DNA from: Basidiobolus ranarum
Lineage: Eukaryota
Direction: 5' to 3'
Length of the DNA: 38,279 nucleotides
NCBI GenBank assembly: GCA_040143965.1
Contig: JASJQH010006923.1
Location: forward strand, 1 to 38,279
In this document: positions 7,866 through 38,134 of the stretch, one piece after another
How the letters are laid out: every line of letters begins with the position of its first letter
Numbering within the stretch: position 1 is the first letter of the stretch
Translations under genes and position numbers: made by a program
The notes under the pieces: generated by a model
Databases searched by the model: none
Told to the model about the DNA's origin: nothing
The model's input: only the letters and a program-made list of their open reading frames with translations

Positions 7866-9656
7866 TTAACTGTAAAATGTCCGGATGCCATCTACTTCGG
7901 CAAAATAGTCAATGTATCTGTTCTGAACTTCAGTAAGAACTTCATACGACAGGCCTTCAACTGTATATGGATATGATAGGAGAATGTATAGACGCTGTAA
8001 TTTCTTACAGGACTTCATGATTTCCCTAAGATACTTGTCGGATAACGCCCCATTATCTCGAAAAGTCAAAACTTTAAGACCACGTCCATACTTGGCAATG
8101 GCTTCTAGCGTCAGGTTGGTAATTGGCCACCTATCAATATTTAACGCCTCAAGGTGGCCGCCGTGCAAACGAATAAATTCTACGAATTCAGTGGCAGATA
8201 AAGGTACTTCAGCACATGCTTCAGTCCACCTTGGCCACTCCACATTTAGATCGGTTATGTATGAGCATTGCTTGGTTATTTCGCTTATTGTATCTCCTGA
8301 AATAGATGTCTTCGATAGATTTAGAATCCTTAGGGTTTTTCCATTAGTTTCAAGTATTTTCTTGACTGCTATATCGCTTGTCCACGTTCTTTTCAATGAT
8401 AGCTCGCGTAGTTTATGGCAATGTTTCGCAACAATTGAAGCAATCTCATCATTGAATGAGGCGTTACTGTCTAAGTGAAGTACCTGAAGAGAACCTCCAC
8501 ACTTTGACAATAAAGTTTCCCAAACATCGAAGGGTGGTTTGCGGATCTCCATGATATTCGATAGGCATAATCGCTTCAAAGTTGGCGAGATATTTTGAGC
8601 TAAACATGCAAGGGATTTATGAGAAATGGTGAATCGACATAACTCTAACGACTCCAGGTGAGGACCGTGATTTCTCCAGAGCTCATTTAATACGAGCTGG
8701 GGTACATAGGGTTCTCTATGAAAGCACAACTTCAATTGCTTTAGTTGACCTTGATAAACTTGAGCCAATCTATGACACAGCATCTCTATTGGAGTATATC
8801 TATTGCTGTCTGAGTATGTGAGTTCAATTTCCAATGACTTTAATTTAGGGCAGCTTTTCCACAGATTCTCGGTAAAAGAGTCGGATATTTGAACCATGGT
8901 GAAGCTCAAGTGTTCAAGATCAGGTGTGTGGATCAATATCCTCTCAACCAGTACACTCGAAGAATGCACACATCTTAAAGAAAGTGATTTGAGAGGTGAA
9001 GTCGGCAGTACATCTATTTCATTCATATCCAAGTTATGAAGTAAAGGGTAGTCCGTATCCAAATCCACAGCCAATTCTTGGAGCTCAGTGCAACCGGCTA
9101 GGACACTGCACAAATCTTGAAGCACTCTACGAAACGAAATCCGTGTGTCTCTATAGTGTAGCCGTCGCAAGCCTGGAAGTGCTTTATACGCAACATGTCT
9201 TAGGAAAGTGGTGGGGACGGGTAGTAGATTTACAAATGGCAGGGATATAAACTTCAAGTTTGGGAGTAGACTCACTAGATTGGAGATTTCTTCGATAGAT
9301 CGGATTTGATACATGTACATATCGAACGAAAAGTCATTCACGTATCTCCTGGCTAAATTCAAGTTGTCAGTAATCAGTGTGGATACTGCTTTGAGAAAGC
9401 AATGGACACTAGTCGGTATCCCTCACACACACATACCTTTTGGATTATTGAGAATGGTATCTTTGAATGCCAAGTAAGAGCTTTGACTGTTGAAGCTGGG
9501 TCTGTTCCACAGTAAGGGAGTTGTCAGGCTATACCAGTCCTTGTTCACCAAGCAGCATGACCAGAGATCGACCAAGTCTGCCCCCAAGTATGATAATATA
9601 CAACTCATTACCTCGGGTGGGAAAATAGCTAGTATTGCATCTTGACTATCATTCAT
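7866..9656 (-). CDS. F-box / leucine-rich-repeat (FBXL, RNI-like) protein, copy A. Exons 9656-9437 and about 9385-7866
   Basis: F-box FPPEVMSCILSYL..DLWSCCLVNKDWYSLTTPLLW; repeated LxxLxL units (LKSLEI, LESLEL, LQVLHL, LRELSL, LRILNL); phase-1 intron gtatgt..aagcag restores frame. Confidence 0.88.
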
Positions 9657-12078
9657 TTTAGTAATTGTAGAATAGTATCAGTTACTGAACAGGTTATCTA
9701 CTATATTCATCTCGTTTAAATAATCCTCAGAAAACCTCCTTTACTTATGTCAATGACAGCAACGATTTGAAGCAAATAACTAATAGGTGAAATGAGAAAG
9801 GTGGAGGTTAAAGCAACCGCCAACTCAAGTGGCGTTTATATGATCTCTATTCGTACTTGATTGGTCTACCAGTGAACCATTACTCTGTGGGCTTACAACT
9901 ATGGACGTGCGTCATTCGCTTGTGACAGCGAATAATATTTCTATTCGTCCAAGTTCTGTCTTGTCCAATACTTAACCAATCACATCAACGGAGTGTCTCT
10001 GGTGACTGGCTTAATGAATCCATTTAGTATAGCTCTTTTGTGGCTGTATGCTCAGCTAATAGCTATTTACATTAGCGCTGGTATAGAGGGAACTCTGTGC
10101 TTGGCTAGTCTGAAGCGGATTTACTTAATTAAATAATATATCGAAATACATATCAGATTGGATTAGGGCATATTAAATGTGATATTGAGCGTCAAATACC
10201 AAAGTCTGGTTCCATTCAAATTACTCAGGTAATTAGTCTATGTATGCTCCCTAGAGACCAAGATTTTCCGTTATTAGGTTGTTGCCTGGTACTCCACATA
10301 TATACCAGTAATTACGAAGTGTAGTGCCAATATTCCATGGTAAATTATTTATTTCGTTCAAAGTTCAACTTAACCATTAGTCATGGGTAGAACGCTCAAA
10401 TACCACTTACTTCGACATGATAATTGATATATTTTTTCTGAACCTCTGCAAGTACAGAAAGTGTAAAACCATCAGTCTTATCTCGACCCGATGGTAATAT
10501 ATATAACCGCGTTAACTTCCTGCAAGACTTCATGATTTTCCTAAGATACTCATCAGATAATGTTTCGTTATCTCGGAAAGTCAAAGCTTTAAGGCCACGT
10601 CCATACTTGGCTATGGCCTCTAGAGTCAGATTGGTAATTGGCCACCCATCAATGTTCAAAGTTTCGAGGTGACCTCCATGTAAACAAATAAATTCTACAA
10701 ATTCAGTGACAGTCAAAGGAGTCTCTTCATGTGGCTTAATGTATCTTGGCCATTCTATGTTTAGATCGGTTATGTATGAGCATTGCTTGGTTATTTCGCT
10801 TATTGTATCTCCTGAAATGGAAGTCTTGGATAGGTTTAGAGTCCTTAGAGTTTTCCCATTGGTTTCAAGTATCTTCTTTATTGCCACATCACTTGTCCAC
10901 GTTCTCTGTAATGATAACTCACGCAGTTTATGACAATACTTCGCAACTGTCAAAACAATCCTATCATCTAACAAGGCGTTGCTGTCTAAGTGAAGTACCT
11001 GAAGAGAACCTCCACAGCTAGCTAATAAAGGCTCCCAAAAGTCAATAGGAGGTTCACGAAATTCCGTAACGTTTGATCGACATAGTCGCTTTAGAGTTGG
11101 TGAGATGTTATAGGCTAAGCATGTGAAAGATTTATAGAAAATGGTAAATCCGCGTAACTCCAAGGTCTCTAAATGAGGACCATGACTTTTCCAAAGCTCG
11201 TTTAAAACATGCTGTGGTACATGAGGCCCTTTGGGAAAACATAGCTTCAAATGCTTCAGTTGACTTTGGTAGACTTTTGCCAGGCCATGACAAAGTGACT
11301 CAATCGGCATATATCTATTACTGTCTGAGTTTGTGAGTTCAATCTCCAATGACTTTAATTTAGGGCAGCTTTTCCACAGATTCTCGGTAAAAGAGTCGGA
11401 TATTTGAACCATGGTGAAGCTCAAGTGTTCAAGATCAGGTGTGTGGATCAATATCCTCTCAACCAGTACACTCGAAGAATGCACACATCTTAAAGAAAGT
11501 GATTTGAGAGGTGAAGTCGGCAGTACATCTATTTCATTCATATCCAAGTTATGAAGTAAAGGGTAGTCCGTATCCAAATCCACAGCCAATTCTTGGAGCT
11601 CAGTGCAACCGGCTAGGACACTGCACAAATCTTGAAGCACTCTACGAAACGAAATCCGTGTGTCTCTATAGTGTAGCCGTCGCAAGCCTGGAAGTGCTTT
11701 ATACGCAACATGTCTTAGGAAAGTGGTGGGGACGGGTAGTAGATTTACAAATGGCAGGGATATAAACTTCAAGTTTGGGAGTAGACTCACTAGATTGGAG
11801 ATTTCTTCGATAGATCGGATTTGATACATGTACATATCGAACGAAAAGTCATTCACGTATCTCCTGGCTAAATTCAAGTTGTCAGTAATCAGTGTGGATA
11901 CTGCTTTGAGAAAGCAATGGACACTAGTCGGTATCCCTCACACACACATACCTTTTGGATTATTGAGAATGGTATCTTTGAATGCCAAGTAAGAGCTTTG
12001 ACTGTTGAAGCTGGGTCTGTTCCACAGTAAGGGAGTTGTCAGGCTATACCAGTCCTTGTTCACCAAGCAGCATGACCA
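8830..12078. repeat. Direct repeat: about 8830-9563 appears identical to about 11345-12078, within the duplicated F-box genes
   Basis: No difference seen by eye, including the intron; the ORF track gives the same 84-aa antisense ORF at 8996 and 11511. Confidence 0.9.
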
Positions 12079-33067: not shown

Positions 33068-33589
33068 TTGTGTATGTCAAACTTGTGATCGTGTTTTTAG
33101 AACGAGCAGGTTGAGCAAGATTATTTGAATTCATTCTTGAATCGCAAGCGAAGTTGTATACGGATGTTGTTGGGATTAAAATCGTTTGCTTTGAGACGTA
33201 ATATACACTTAAAATACACCTTTTACAGATTCAGCTTCTTGCAATAGTAATAAATAAGTGAATAATTTAAAATGAGTGAAGTATTGTGTGATGGATTGGT
33301 CACTTGAATCTGGTTATTAAACCTAATAGGCAAGTATCAAGTATACTTGGTTTTGTTTGTGTGCAATGTTATCCAAATATGTGTATGAGTGCGTTAATGG
33401 TATCGGGTCGGGTGTTGAAACTTCACTTGGTATTCCTAAATGCCAATCTTTTGTTCAACGTGATAACAACAAACAATGGAAGAGCATATAGACTTATTTC
33501 CTATTCACGAATGAATATAAAAGTGACCTGTAACATGGACCACATTGTTGTGGTAGATGCACTGATATTGCTAAATCTATCCAACAACT

Positions 33590-34680
33590 ATGACTTCATA
33601 TCCACTTCACTGGTATTTCAAAAAAGGCGAACCTATTAAGACTCCTTCTTCACTGGACGGAATAGATTGTCACAAGGAGAAATTGGACCGATCTAAAGGT
33701 TGTACGTTGATTTTTAGTATTGGAATGACTTTGGAGTTGTATGTTTCTTTATATATATAGCATAATTACTAGAATAGACAACTGAATTCAGTTTTAATAC
33801 TTACTATTTTTTCTGTGGAAGACCTCAAATCACTTTGGCTACTGCAACTGTGTATTTCCACCGGTTTTATCTCCGACAATCTTTAAAGGAGTTTCATTAC
33901 TATGTAGGTTATTGGTTCTTGGAGTCATCACATCCCTTGATGTTCATATTTGAAGATAACTTTAACTATAGGATATTGGTACAACCTGTGTTTTCTTGGC
34001 ATGTAAAGTTGAAGAAACCAGGCGAAACTTACAAGATATCATCACTGTATATGCTCAAAAAGTTCACAAGCTTATTCTTGAAGAGAACTCTAAGGTATTC
34101 TTCAAATGAATTCAAGTACTATCCCCTATTTCAATATATATTTTTCTGCTTAGGAATTTTGTCAGTGGAAGGAGATGATTTTCAACTACGAAGTGATTTT
34201 GTTAGAAACTTTATGCTTTGAGTTAACCATCGAACATCCTTACAAAATATTGATCCGTCTGGTTCAAGAACTTCAAGGTATAATTGTTGTCATTAGGGAT
34301 CAAATCTTTGTAAAATTCATATATCTTCATGGATTTTTAGGTTCTAAGAAAGTTGCAAACATTGCTTGGGCCTTAATTAATCATAGGTATTTCTTGACTG
34401 ATTTTTATTAAACTAATATCTAGTTAATAGTCAGCTTGCGCACCGTTTTATGTATCACTTATCCACCACATGTAGTTGCAGCATCTGCATTTTATATCGC
34501 AAACAAGCTTCTGGATTCGAAACTGGATACATCTACTGAATGTAGTTGGTGGAAAATAATCGATGTGAATTTTAAGGATGTTAAAGGTATGTCATCCATT
34601 CATGCTTGAGAAATGAAGATTGATCGATTAGATATCTTTTTTTAATAGACGCATCAGTATTACTGCTGGATCAATGTTGA
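33590..34680 (+). CDS. Transcriptional cyclin (cyclin K/T, Pch1-like). Exons approx. 33590-33738, 33822-33903, 33972-34094, 34154-34277, 34341-34387, 34435-34587, 34649-34680
   Basis: Spliced product: WYF..TPSSLDGI..EKLDRSKGC..LPQITLATATVYFHRFYLRQS..CVFLACKVEET..EVILLETLCFELTIEHPY..AWALINHSLRTVLCITYPPHVVAASA. Six GT-AG introns keep frame. Confidence 0.88.
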
Positions 34681-35288: not shown

Positions 35289-37752
35289 TCAGAAGGTGAA
35301 GCACTTTTGAAGGTCATATCCGAGCTTCTCTAGGTTAGGGATACAGGTGAATTTTAGCATAGGTGGTGGTCCGCTCATCAGAACTACTGTATCTTCTACT
35401 GGCTTAGGAAGGTGATTTCGAATCATTTCGTAAGTAATGAATCCAGTACTGTAGGGCCACTCTGAAAGATATGTTTCGTCTATAGTATACCATACTTTAA
35501 GTTGGTCGGGATTTTTGACAGATAACGTTTCCAACTCATCTCTTAACAGTATGTCTTCCTCGCTTTTGTTCGCAAATAAAAGTGAGATCTTGGTGTTTTC
35601 TGTAGGATCTTTCAGAATGGCACGGATCAACTGAAGCATTCGTGTAAGACCAGTCCCACCGGCAATCATGGCAAAGTTTCGAGCTTGACCCTTCAGGTGT
35701 TTGCGTTCGACTCGATAACGCCCGTGTCCATCATAATTGAACTCACCCATAGGACCTTTGACTTCAACGGTGTCTCCTATTTCAAGGGAGTCTAAGTATT
35801 GTGAAAACTTGCCGCCATTTGGGTACTTCGGATGAGTTCCTTTGAAGTATACCTTCACCGCTAGATCCAGGTGTCCCAAGTCAGCTTCGGTAGAAACAGG
35901 TGTATACGGACGAACAATGGTTCTTCCATTAATCTTGGCACGGAGTAGAATGTGCTTTCCAAGTGGAAGACCCATACGATGTTTGGGTGACGGTAAACCG
36001 AGACGAAAAAGTCGCGTATCCTTACTAAGTACAATCTTTTCAATGAGGGGAAAAGCAGTATATTTGAGTGGTGATAGCGCAACCAAATCATTAGGTTTGG
36101 CCACTTCCAAAATTGGCTCTTGACGAACAGAATCAGCGAGTCGGCCTATGCAGTAAGGCTCTAACATCTCAATTGCCCCAGACGAGTGAATATCCCCAAA
36201 TTCTCTAGTACAGTCTGTTCCGGCATTGGCGGCAATAGTTTCCATACCACCTGGATGAAGCTTGATAAAATCTGTACAGTCGTACACACGTCCGTATATA
36301 GATACCCATACATCATCAGGCTTGTGATGATTTGCAACATCTTCTGCGGTGAACACCCGCGGCCTAGGAATAATACATTTTCTCTTGACTGTAGTCTCTC
36401 CCTCTGAAGACTCGAATGGGTCCATTTTGCGTTTTCTCTTCTGGTTGATAGTTTGTTCTAACCAGCCAGAGTTGTCCACCTGGGAGATGGGATGCAAAAA
36501 TCTAATCATTTGATCTTGGTGACGATCTATCTCCACGGCAAGCTTGATTATCTGATAGTTGTCCATTCGAGATTTTGGAGTAGATTCGGAAGGCATGATA
36601 CGAATACATATATCTTCAGCACGAGCAAGGTCCGATGTTAATACTGTGAAAGACCAGAATGCCCAAGCCCACCATTTCTTGTTATTGGGTGAGCTTTGCT
36701 GGGGGCAAATATTACATCCGTGCCAGGTCTGACCCTGGTCAAAAGATACTTCCACCCCCTCTATCTTGCTTCCATCTCCACTAAACGCATATCCTCGAAG
36801 ATTGCATGCGCCTTGGGTCATATGTGCCAATTCTTTATGGCCAGGGATACATAATGTCGCATTAGGAGAAAGTACATCACTGCTAGGAACCTCATCGGCT
36901 GTTCCTTGAGAGAGGCCTTGGTTTTCGTATTTGTGATACCAGTTGTCACTTTCTTTGTTTGTAATAAAGATACGTTTGAGCCATTTCACCATGCGTCCAC
37001 CGATGTGACCTGGAGCAATGACACGTATGGGGAATCCATGGTCTGGTGTCAATCGTTCACCGTTCATTTCGTATGCTATAAGTATTTCTTGATCTGGGTC
37101 TAAACAGTGTGCTAGAGGGATACTAGTGCCGTAAGAACCATTTGGTAGTTGATCACATCCTTCGAAGTGGACATGCCATGTTTCATCTTCTGGCAATTGA
37201 TCGATCTCGCAAAAATCCAGTATATCTTTTAAATAAACCCCACCCCACATGGCAGTACTAGCTGCGACTTTTTTCCAAATGCCACTTGGCTGGTTTGGTG
37301 TTGATAATTCTTTGCGTCTGTTACCAGAACAAGCTAGGGTAACCGGAATTTCCACTTTCTTAAAGGAGGCTATTTCCTCCATAGTTAAATACTTGGATAT
37401 TGAGAGTCTACAGGAAGAAATATTCGTTTAGCAATGCTTCAAGATGTATGCATTGGAAGCGCTTAAGGTGCAACATTACTTACCCACAAACCTCAAGTAT
37501 GTGTGTTTCCCACTTGAGCCTTGGTACATAACCATGGTTTCTGACGTGATGTAAAGCGGTTGAGGTTATGTATCCGTCTTGATAAAGACGTTTGAGTGGA
37601 GGCTCCGCGTTAAACGGGTACTTTCCCGTAAGTCGTATTAAGGAAGGGTGACGAGGAATCCAGTCGTCAGCAGTGTCCTTATCTCGCTCATCGTATACTA
37701 ATTCTTTGTCAGCTTCAAACTGAGATATTGATTTCGATGAAGTCAAGCCCAT
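35289..37752 (-). CDS. Eukaryotic nitrate-reductase-like protein (Moco, dimerisation, cytochrome b5 and FAD/NAD domains), divergent. Exons 37752-37484 and 37407-35289
   Basis: DDWIPRHPSLIRLTGKYPFNAEPP, VRNHG, VTLACSGNRRKE, YGTSI, AYEMNGERLTPDHGFPIRVIAPGHIGGRMVKWLKRI, LRGYAFSG, b5 HPGG..FGDIHS, GLPLGKHI, RPYTP, GGKFSQYL, MIAGGTG, GPPPM. Confidence 0.9.
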
Positions 37753-37789: not shown

Positions 37790-38134
37790 AGATAAAAGTT
37801 CCAACGAAAAAATAGTGACGGTGGTTATAGGTTTATCTGATTTGTTGAAAAGAATATTGAGTGGCTAGACACGACGATATACACTGAGCAAATCAAAGTA
37901 AGTTCTCGAAGCAAACTCAAATCCAATGAAATGATAATCAAGTATTTATTTACATAGAACCACTAAGGATACGATGCCCCTACACCTAAATAATTCACTA
38001 TTTATCTCGTGATAACCGTTTCTGGCCCGGTCTAGACAGTATCTCAGTCATCCACTTGCAGATATACTAGATGCCACAGCCCAGAACATGGATTCATATA
38101 TGAACTGATCCATCTCCGTGACAATTTCCGTGAC
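37790..38134. promoter_or_regulatory. GATA-site cluster and repeated TCCGTGAC element upstream of the nitrate-reductase-like gene
   Basis: HGATAR at 37790, 37833, 37932, 38002 and 38010; TCCGTGAC at 38115-38122 and 38127-38134. Confidence 0.5.

Follow-up and report, generated by a model that had tools for sequence, protein, structure and literature searches.

Can a protein that has kept the architecture and the molybdenum cofactor (Moco) core of a nitrate reductase (NR), yet differs from canonical NRs in three conserved segments, still be regarded as a nitrate reductase? The question is raised by a gene on the minus strand of a 38,279-nucleotide stretch of Basidiobolus ranarum DNA (contig JASJQH010006923.1; referred to here as the window). 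Two exons (37752-37484 and 37407-35289) encode a product of 795 amino acids with NR architecture, and their spliced translation is identical to database protein P0003, which automatic annotation has named a B. ranarum nitrate reductase. Pfam places its domains in the order Mo, dimerisation, cytochrome b5, FAD and NAD (PF00174, PF03404, PF00173, PF00970, PF00175), which is the order of the eukaryotic NAD(P)H:nitrate reductases (EUKNR). The searches gave four such divergent sequences, this one included, with B. ranarum and B. meristosporus having two each. The view that we reach is that the gene is conserved and, quite probably, no longer a normal NR. Its parts, and the region upstream of it, are as follows.

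37809..37952, minus strand: upstream non-coding block kept in the sister copy, a putative promoter or 5' UTR
37732..37752, minus strand: N-terminus with Gly2, Ser6 and Lys7, predicted to fit the N-myristoylation consensus
37484..37752, minus strand: exon 1, codons 1-90, which encode the N-terminal portion of the Mo domain with VRNHG
37540-37542, minus strand: Arg71 of VRNHG
37408..37483, minus strand: intron of 76 nt, GT-AG; the sister copy on contig C163 has a 120-nt intron at the same position
35289..37407, minus strand: exon 2, the remaining Mo domain, dimerisation domain, cytochrome b5, FAD and NAD domains (by Pfam) and stop codon
37314..37331, minus strand: Mo-ligand motif Cys116-Arg121, with the Cys and Arg120 in 4/4 divergent copies and Arg121 in 2/4
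37329-37331, minus strand: codon of the Mo-ligand Cys116
37278..37313, minus strand: segment 1, residues 122-133, freely varying; the kept Trp134 and a fixed Gly-to-Lys135 follow
36858..36932, minus strand: segment 2, residues 249-273, with a fixed Asp-to-Glu251, the WW stretch gone and the rest variable
36543..36599, minus strand: segment 3, residues 360-378, where all four copies have a deletion of the WN..G..NN loop and the rest is variable
36462..36506, minus strand: residues 391-405, highly conserved in the divergent clade (identity between paralogues 0.97, against 0.49 in canonical NRs)
36378..36440, minus strand: basic patch in hinge 1, with Lys413, Lys415, Arg416 and Lys431 invariant in the four copies
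36132..36356, minus strand: cytochrome b5 domain with His474 and His497
36257 and 36188, minus strand: b5 haem ligands His474 and His497
35292..36086, minus strand: FAD/NAD(P)H module resembling b5 reductase, the most constrained part, with a fixed Cys-to-Ser768

The first-pass annotation, which covered 36540..37335, reported that the Mo-ligating Cys, the Arg of VRNHG and both b5 His residues are retained in an uninterrupted frame. All four were located (Cys116, Arg71, His474, His497), but the GT-AG intron at 37408-37483 sits between VRNHG and the Cys motif, and both VRNHG and the His ligands fall outside that interval. In P0005 (ORX88329.1) an insertion of 16 residues is found exactly where the other copies have the intron, and it is probably a gene-model read-through.

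The second divergent copy of B. ranarum, on C163, is 80% identical to the window copy, and each of the two has a single orthologue in B. meristosporus (ORY05600.1 and ORX88329.1). In a tree built without the three segments, the four copies form a long-stemmed clade (UFBoot 100, stem 0.40). This clade is sister to the canonical NRs of Basidiobolus (UFBoot 99 with 28 sequences, the sulfite oxidase of the genome included, and 100 with 37 sequences), and within it the copies pair across species (95/83 and 99/92). FastTree on 83 sequences, most plant sequences being left out, agrees with a support of 1.0. The protein therefore descends from within the EUKNR tree, and the earlier suggestion of an NR paralogue alongside canonical NRs is borne out by both the trees and the genome search. 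Upstream of both the C163 and the window locus lie the same two neighbours, one of the TB2/DP1 family and the other intron-rich and without a name, which together with the shared intron position indicates that they stem from a segmental or larger duplication. Since each copy is orthologous across the two species and no member was found outside Basidiobolus, the origin of the clade and its duplication predate the species split. A profile of the four copies was searched against 1.84 billion representatives; its best 150 matches contained one clade representative and no member from outside the genus, the next match, a canonical Basidiobolus NR, scoring under half as much. An Atlas search gave no further members, and none of 23 short homologues was a closer fragment (the best had 53% identity).

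Two other origins were considered. A chimera with a C-terminus taken from b5 reductase is not supported: b5 reductase is the top-scoring match there, but a FAD-only tree groups this part with the Basidiobolus NRs, if weakly (0.68); a b5-only tree does not resolve the placement. Descent of the Mo domain from sulfite oxidase is rejected, being contradicted by the trees and by the identity counts, which are 105/283 to the sulfite oxidase of the genome (C140) and 164/307 to the canonical NR C550. As to other genes in the window, an intron-rich gene at 33570-34600 (plus strand), which looks cyclin-like although two pieces of it gave no Pfam match, adjoins the NR paralogue here and also at C163, and two tandem leucine-rich-repeat genes (7866-9422 and 10396-11937, minus strand) are identical over their first approximately 200 residues.

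How far the three segments depart from the family was assessed against 158 other full-architecture homologues, a plant-heavy set consisting of the 166 of 267 fetched proteins that passed the coverage filter minus eight from Basidiobolus. The Phe of F.WG is present in 143 of these, the Asp of DNR in 151 and the Gly of the WN..G..NN loop in 152; all three are found in 7/7 canonical Basidiobolus NRs and in 0/4 divergent copies. The same holds for the whole patterns F.WG, DNR and WN..G..NN (138, 146 and 129 of the 158, 7/7 and 0/4, respectively). The segments read as the first-pass annotation had given them, and their changes exceed normal NR variation. In segment 2 the change of Asp to Glu251 is fixed in all four copies and the WW stretch is lost, as had been claimed; the change of Arg to Gln is real in the window copy but private to it, the other three having kept Arg. 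Segment 3 is indeed altered, partly by a deletion of about 8-10 residues common to all four copies and not by substitution alone. The canonical motifs are absent from every one of the six reading frames of the window, so that their restoration by a hidden intron or in another frame was rejected, and the same losses at four loci in the assemblies of two species are explained neither by an unseen intron nor by an assembly error.

The canonical Basidiobolus NRs (C550, C1774, C286, P0008, P0009, P0011 and P0012) are so called by sequence alone. All seven have Gln in the funnel loop where 140 of the 158 homologues have Met; in P0012, the Asn of the Cys motif is replaced by His.

Aligned via the canonical P0010, the deleted loop corresponds to WNVTSMLNN of Pichia angusta NR and to residues 447-453 of chicken sulfite oxidase. 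Residues of this kind presumably line the nitrate funnel, and the site of the sulfite oxidase mutation G473D would fall in the same loop. Chicken positions 450 and 452, in the alignment of the deleted loop, and position 322 are those changed in PDB 3r18/3r19, which carry the title of mutants 'with altered activity and substrate affinity'. Mutations in the dimer domain of sulfite oxidase are described, in a passage of PMC8908248, as giving monomeric or inactive enzyme.

The first-pass annotation spoke of a remodelled substrate region, which would suggest a new specific pocket. The segments, by contrast, vary among the four copies themselves, with 4-13 identities per 12-35 columns: one orthologous pair has 5/12, 9/31 and 13/19 columns in common and the other 4/12, 11/35 and 4/19, against 13/13, 35/36 and 27/27 for canonical orthologues, which are a closer pair. 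Of the sites conserved in 85% or more of 165 homologues, all four copies keep 61/68 in the Mo core, 18/22 in the dimer-domain scaffold, 19/20 in b5 and 43/48 in the FAD/NAD module. In the segments this is 0/23, with six positions fixed otherwise (four of them as gaps) and 17 variable. Because the segments were picked for differing from canonical NRs, the 0/23 arises partly by construction, and the telling observation is the variation from one of the four copies to another.

Codon-model maximum-likelihood estimates of dN/dS, at a dS close to saturation, were obtained for one pair of each kind with DNA, the two B. ranarum divergent copies and the canonical C550/C1774. In the divergent pair the ratio is 0.069 in the Mo core (341 codons, p=1e-92 against 1), 0.07 in b5 and 0.024 in the FAD/NAD module. 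For the segments it is 0.54 (56 codons; p=1e-20 against the core, and below 1 at p=0.005), a value drawn from a gappy alignment with dS near 1.5. The canonical pair gives 0.079, 0.094 and 0.148 for the same three parts and 0.059 for the segments. The largest gain of constraint is thus in the FAD/NAD module and not in the Mo domain, while the divergent segments evolve about eight times faster than the core. Segments at 0.54, against about 0.06 in canonical NRs, that also differ among copies imply that the loops of the nitrate funnel and the dimer interface were lost or released from constraint, and not rebuilt as a new conserved pocket. The divergent copy is under strong purifying selection. 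Of the two possibilities raised at first pass, a neofunctionalised paralogue or relaxed selection, each holds in part, as relaxation is limited to three loops inside a conserved gene.

Simple decay, for which a dN/dS near 1 would be expected, is rejected by these values, with the Mo core at 0.069. That the gene is a decaying pseudogene, or an artefact of assembly or gene modelling, is hardly credible given four intact frames in two species, a gene-wide dN/dS of 0.075 at a dS of about 1.7 (by a counting method, in agreement with the codon model), a conserved upstream block, and the quite different look of a truly broken NR copy on C1170. The one feature in its favour is Pro679Arg, private to the window copy at a site where Pro is conserved in 149/158 homologues. 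This single base change (35640-35642, in the FAD/NAD module) is either a polymorphism or a sequencing error.

Much of the catalytic apparatus is retained. The residues which we take to be the Mo ligand and Moco contacts (Cys116, Arg71, His73, His213, Arg228 and Lys231) occur in 4/4 divergent copies, as do Arg120, Trp134, both haem His residues and the FAD-binding Arg. Arg121 is found in 2/4 and Asn252 in 3/4: the sister lineage (P0005, P0006) has lost the second Arg of the Cys motif and has changed a Gly to Ser, and P0006 additionally lacks the Asn of DNR. Near the active site His45Tyr, Pro64Ser, Gly135Lys and Asp251Glu are fixed in all four, and Cys768Ser, whose equivalent presumably slows flavin reduction in NR, is fixed in the clade as well. 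Asp733 aligns with an Asp of b5 reductase that we assume to favour NADH, and we take it to match Ser920 of Neurospora NR in position. According to a table row in PMC5054688, Ser920Asp is one of the changes by which the Neurospora enzyme was switched to NADH. Elsewhere in the family, Ser apparently replaces the Mo-ligand Cys in P0143 (all five NR domains, a 22-member cluster), P0146 (a red alga, no b5 match), P0165, P0179 and P0181, which are possibly independent non-catalytic NR paralogues to judge from their residues.

Does the divergent copy then remain a nitrate reductase, with lower affinity or with altered regulation or location? The window copy keeps, by alignment, the equivalents of P. 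angusta NR Arg89, Cys139, Arg144, Trp158 and Asn272, for which we assume the numbering offset and the role, and it bears the automatic database label. Nevertheless, we consider this improbable, as DNR, F.WG and WN..G..NN are present in 0/4 copies against 7/7 canonical Basidiobolus NRs, loops that are among the most constrained parts of the canonical enzyme (0.059) are the least constrained here, and the sister lineage is without the second Arg.

The genome has two complete canonical NRs (C550, C1774), to which the window copy is 46-47% identical, and a partial one (C286); the broken copy (C1170:1206-2430), with a stop and its Cys replaced, is close to the one on C286. Also present are an NAD(P)H nitrite reductase (C7498), a sulfite reductase (C1537), the canonical sulfite oxidase C140, and Moco synthesis genes of the MoaA and MoeA types together with a Moco sulfurase. 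With canonical NRs, nitrite reductase and sulfite oxidase in place, the divergent copy would have been freed. For an NRT2-type transporter (TIGR00886), 18 of 79 candidates were scored, and the 16 matches were weak, none being over the cut-off. No NR-nitrite reductase cluster is seen in the stretches of C7498, C550 and C286 that were read, and the neighbouring genes suggest no substrate. Two MOSC searches of the 13,754-contig assembly, conducted exon by exon, gave no mARC and only the Moco sulfurase on C336, although mARC genes are a general eukaryotic feature according to a passage of a review (PMC6321594). Several separate b5-reductase-like loci and two long hybrid-cluster-protein frames were found. 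The truncated-globin family is expanded, with 17 PF01152 matches (C783:5251-5586, C7921:2838-3176 and 15 others); the one scanned, on C783, combines a truncated globin and a protoglobin match with a hydrophobic C-terminal tail and has no reductase domain. No classical globin (PF00042) was found in the genome.

The conserved Mo core argues for a domain that still holds Moco, and the freed loops argue against nitrate. The mechanism that we propose, with a probability of roughly 0.4, is that of a reductase tethered to a membrane, in which an NADH-FAD-haem-Mo chain serves a site opened to bulkier N-O or S=O substrates, so that one polypeptide would act like the mARC system. As a Basidiobolus-specific NR duplicate that may have left nitrate assimilation to its canonical siblings, the protein would still bind Moco and pass electrons from NADH through FAD and haem b5 to Mo. 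Without the funnel-capping loop and the WW stretch, its Mo centre would be open and no longer shaped for a small oxyanion, and could take an oxygen atom off bulkier or neutral compounds such as N-oxides, N-hydroxy compounds and sulfoxides, with reduction of nitrite to NO as a possible side activity. N-myristoylation and the basic patch would keep the protein on the membrane. Such a mode of working would resemble the three-protein chain of mARC, cytochrome b5 and b5 reductase, or MsrP, in one polypeptide built from NR. All of this beyond the selection pattern we infer from sequence, and the structural model does not show an opened site. That model (AlphaFold2, mean pLDDT 73.6, pTM 0.50) is unreliable at the three segments, where pLDDT falls below 50, and its fold matches are b5 reductase, NR and sulfite oxidase only. 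A homodimer prediction for residues 10-410, run without use of the alignment, scored 0.00, which speaks neither for nor against a dimer.

A predicted myristoylation-type start (Gly2/Ser6/Lys7) is found in 4/4 divergent copies and in 2/165 other homologues, and residues 1-12 are conserved between copies. The hinge-1 patch may be a membrane-binding or a nuclear signal. The upstream block aligns with that of the sister copy with a local score of 67 (maximum of 30 in 300 shuffles), which suggests that the gene is expressed. Each copy has five GATA sites upstream; in a comparison of five promoters their enrichment gave p=0.09 and 0.03, and we place no weight on it.

Not all observations agree with an opened site. 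The extra constraint on the FAD/NAD module, and not on the Mo domain, counts against it, and the loss of the second Arg and the Gly-to-Ser change in the sister lineage, with the loss of Asn in P0006, would fit an eroding active site instead. The monomeric or inactive state of sulfite oxidase with dimer-domain mutations is a further point against it. The main rival is a different reading, somewhat doubtful in our estimate, in which the protein is a dedicated electron donor (diaphorase) whose FAD and b5 feed an outside partner at the membrane, for instance truncated globins for NO removal. The Mo domain would then be a conserved non-catalytic scaffold or a Moco-binding or sensing module; Chlamydomonas NR, which serves THB1 and ARC, may be compared. 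Against such a donor stand the fixed Cys-to-Ser768, a change that presumably slows flavin reduction, the retention of Cys116, Arg71, Arg120 and Trp134 in 4/4 copies, and the several separate b5-reductase-like loci of the genome. In addition, the Mo core is as constrained as in canonical NRs (0.069, equal to 0.079), which is more than a pure electron donor would obviously need. The reading as a donor is favoured by the FAD/NAD ratio (0.024, against 0.148 in canonical NRs), by the absence of the substrate Arg from 2/4 copies, by the 17 PF01152 matches with a scanned globin that lacks a reductase domain, and by a Moco-independent donor activity of NR described in part of PMC6321594.

A nitrite-to-NO enzyme, the third possibility, would have shed nitrate competition along with its nitrate-selective funnel and would act as a membrane-bound NO source for signalling or for low-oxygen life in the gut. 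The passages of PMC6321594 at hand state that every Moco enzyme known so far is able to form NO from nitrite and that nitrate inhibits NO production by NR, and NO-handling genes are present (the two hybrid-cluster-protein frames and many globins). Yet nitrite is small and anionic, so an opened funnel and the loss of an Arg would be of no obvious help, and we hold this to be unlikely.

Among known systems, the closest are the eukaryotic NRs themselves (P. angusta Mo fragment PDB 2bih/2bii, Arabidopsis NIA1 and the Basidiobolus NRs), with which the divergent copies have the five-domain order, the Mo, haem and FAD residues and descent in common. They differ from these in the three funnel and dimer segments, lost or drifting, and in the five fixed substitutions; compared with the canonical C550 and C1774 frames, the myristoylation-type start, the basic hinge patch and the one intron are found only in the divergent copies. 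A protein that belongs to EUKNR by descent and architecture but is without the funnel motifs ought not to be catalogued under that name. Sulfite oxidase (chicken PDB 1sox, C140 in this genome) has the same Mo fold and Mo-domain scores similar to those of NR, but in the divergent copies the equivalent of Tyr322 is Asn or Gly, that of Arg450 lies in the deleted loop, and trees place the two apart. MsrP (YedY) has an open active site and is monomeric. As a methionine sulfoxide reductase of the sulfite oxidase family it indicates, in a passage of PMC9370002, that this Mo fold can serve sulfoxide reduction. It is bacterial, lacks fused b5 and FAD modules, and is absent from the 21 solved-structure matches to the divergent Mo domain. 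The proposed likeness to mARC with cytochrome b5 and b5 reductase is one of analogy, in that an NADH-FAD-haem-Mo chain would act on N-O bonds, and part of a review (PMC6321594) notes that this chain resembles the domain make-up of NR; mARC has a different Mo fold (MOSC) and three proteins in place of one, and Pfam finds no MOSC_N or MOSC domain in the divergent protein.

A fungal euknr paralogue of uncertain function has been described from Aspergillus nidulans and Acanthamoeba in a part of PMC6400420, and there too an NR paralogue beside a true NR is suspected of not reducing nitrate. As the divergent clade groups with the canonical NRs of Basidiobolus (UFBoot 99-100), it seems to be a separate, genus-level event; the name Basidiobolus is absent from the main text of that paper. 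No paper on the divergent clade was found in the literature searched, a scope outside which most subscription papers fell.

The databases call these copies nitrate reductases, an annotation error that can now be flagged. They also constitute a natural experiment, with the same scaffold present with and without the nitrate funnel in one genome, and with a key Arg kept in only one of the two lineages that duplication produced. This makes it possible to test which loops set substrate choice in NR, and whether side roles such as electron donation or NO production can turn into the main job. Few eukaryotic molybdoenzyme activities are known. It is conceivable, if rather less than probable, that in this gut fungus duplication and the loss of lid loops have made an NR into a new membrane-anchored single-chain molybdoenzyme for bulkier N-oxide, N-hydroxy or sulfoxide substrates in place of the missing mARC. 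If true, eukaryotes would have one activity more than the five Mo enzyme types that a passage of PMC6321594 lists.
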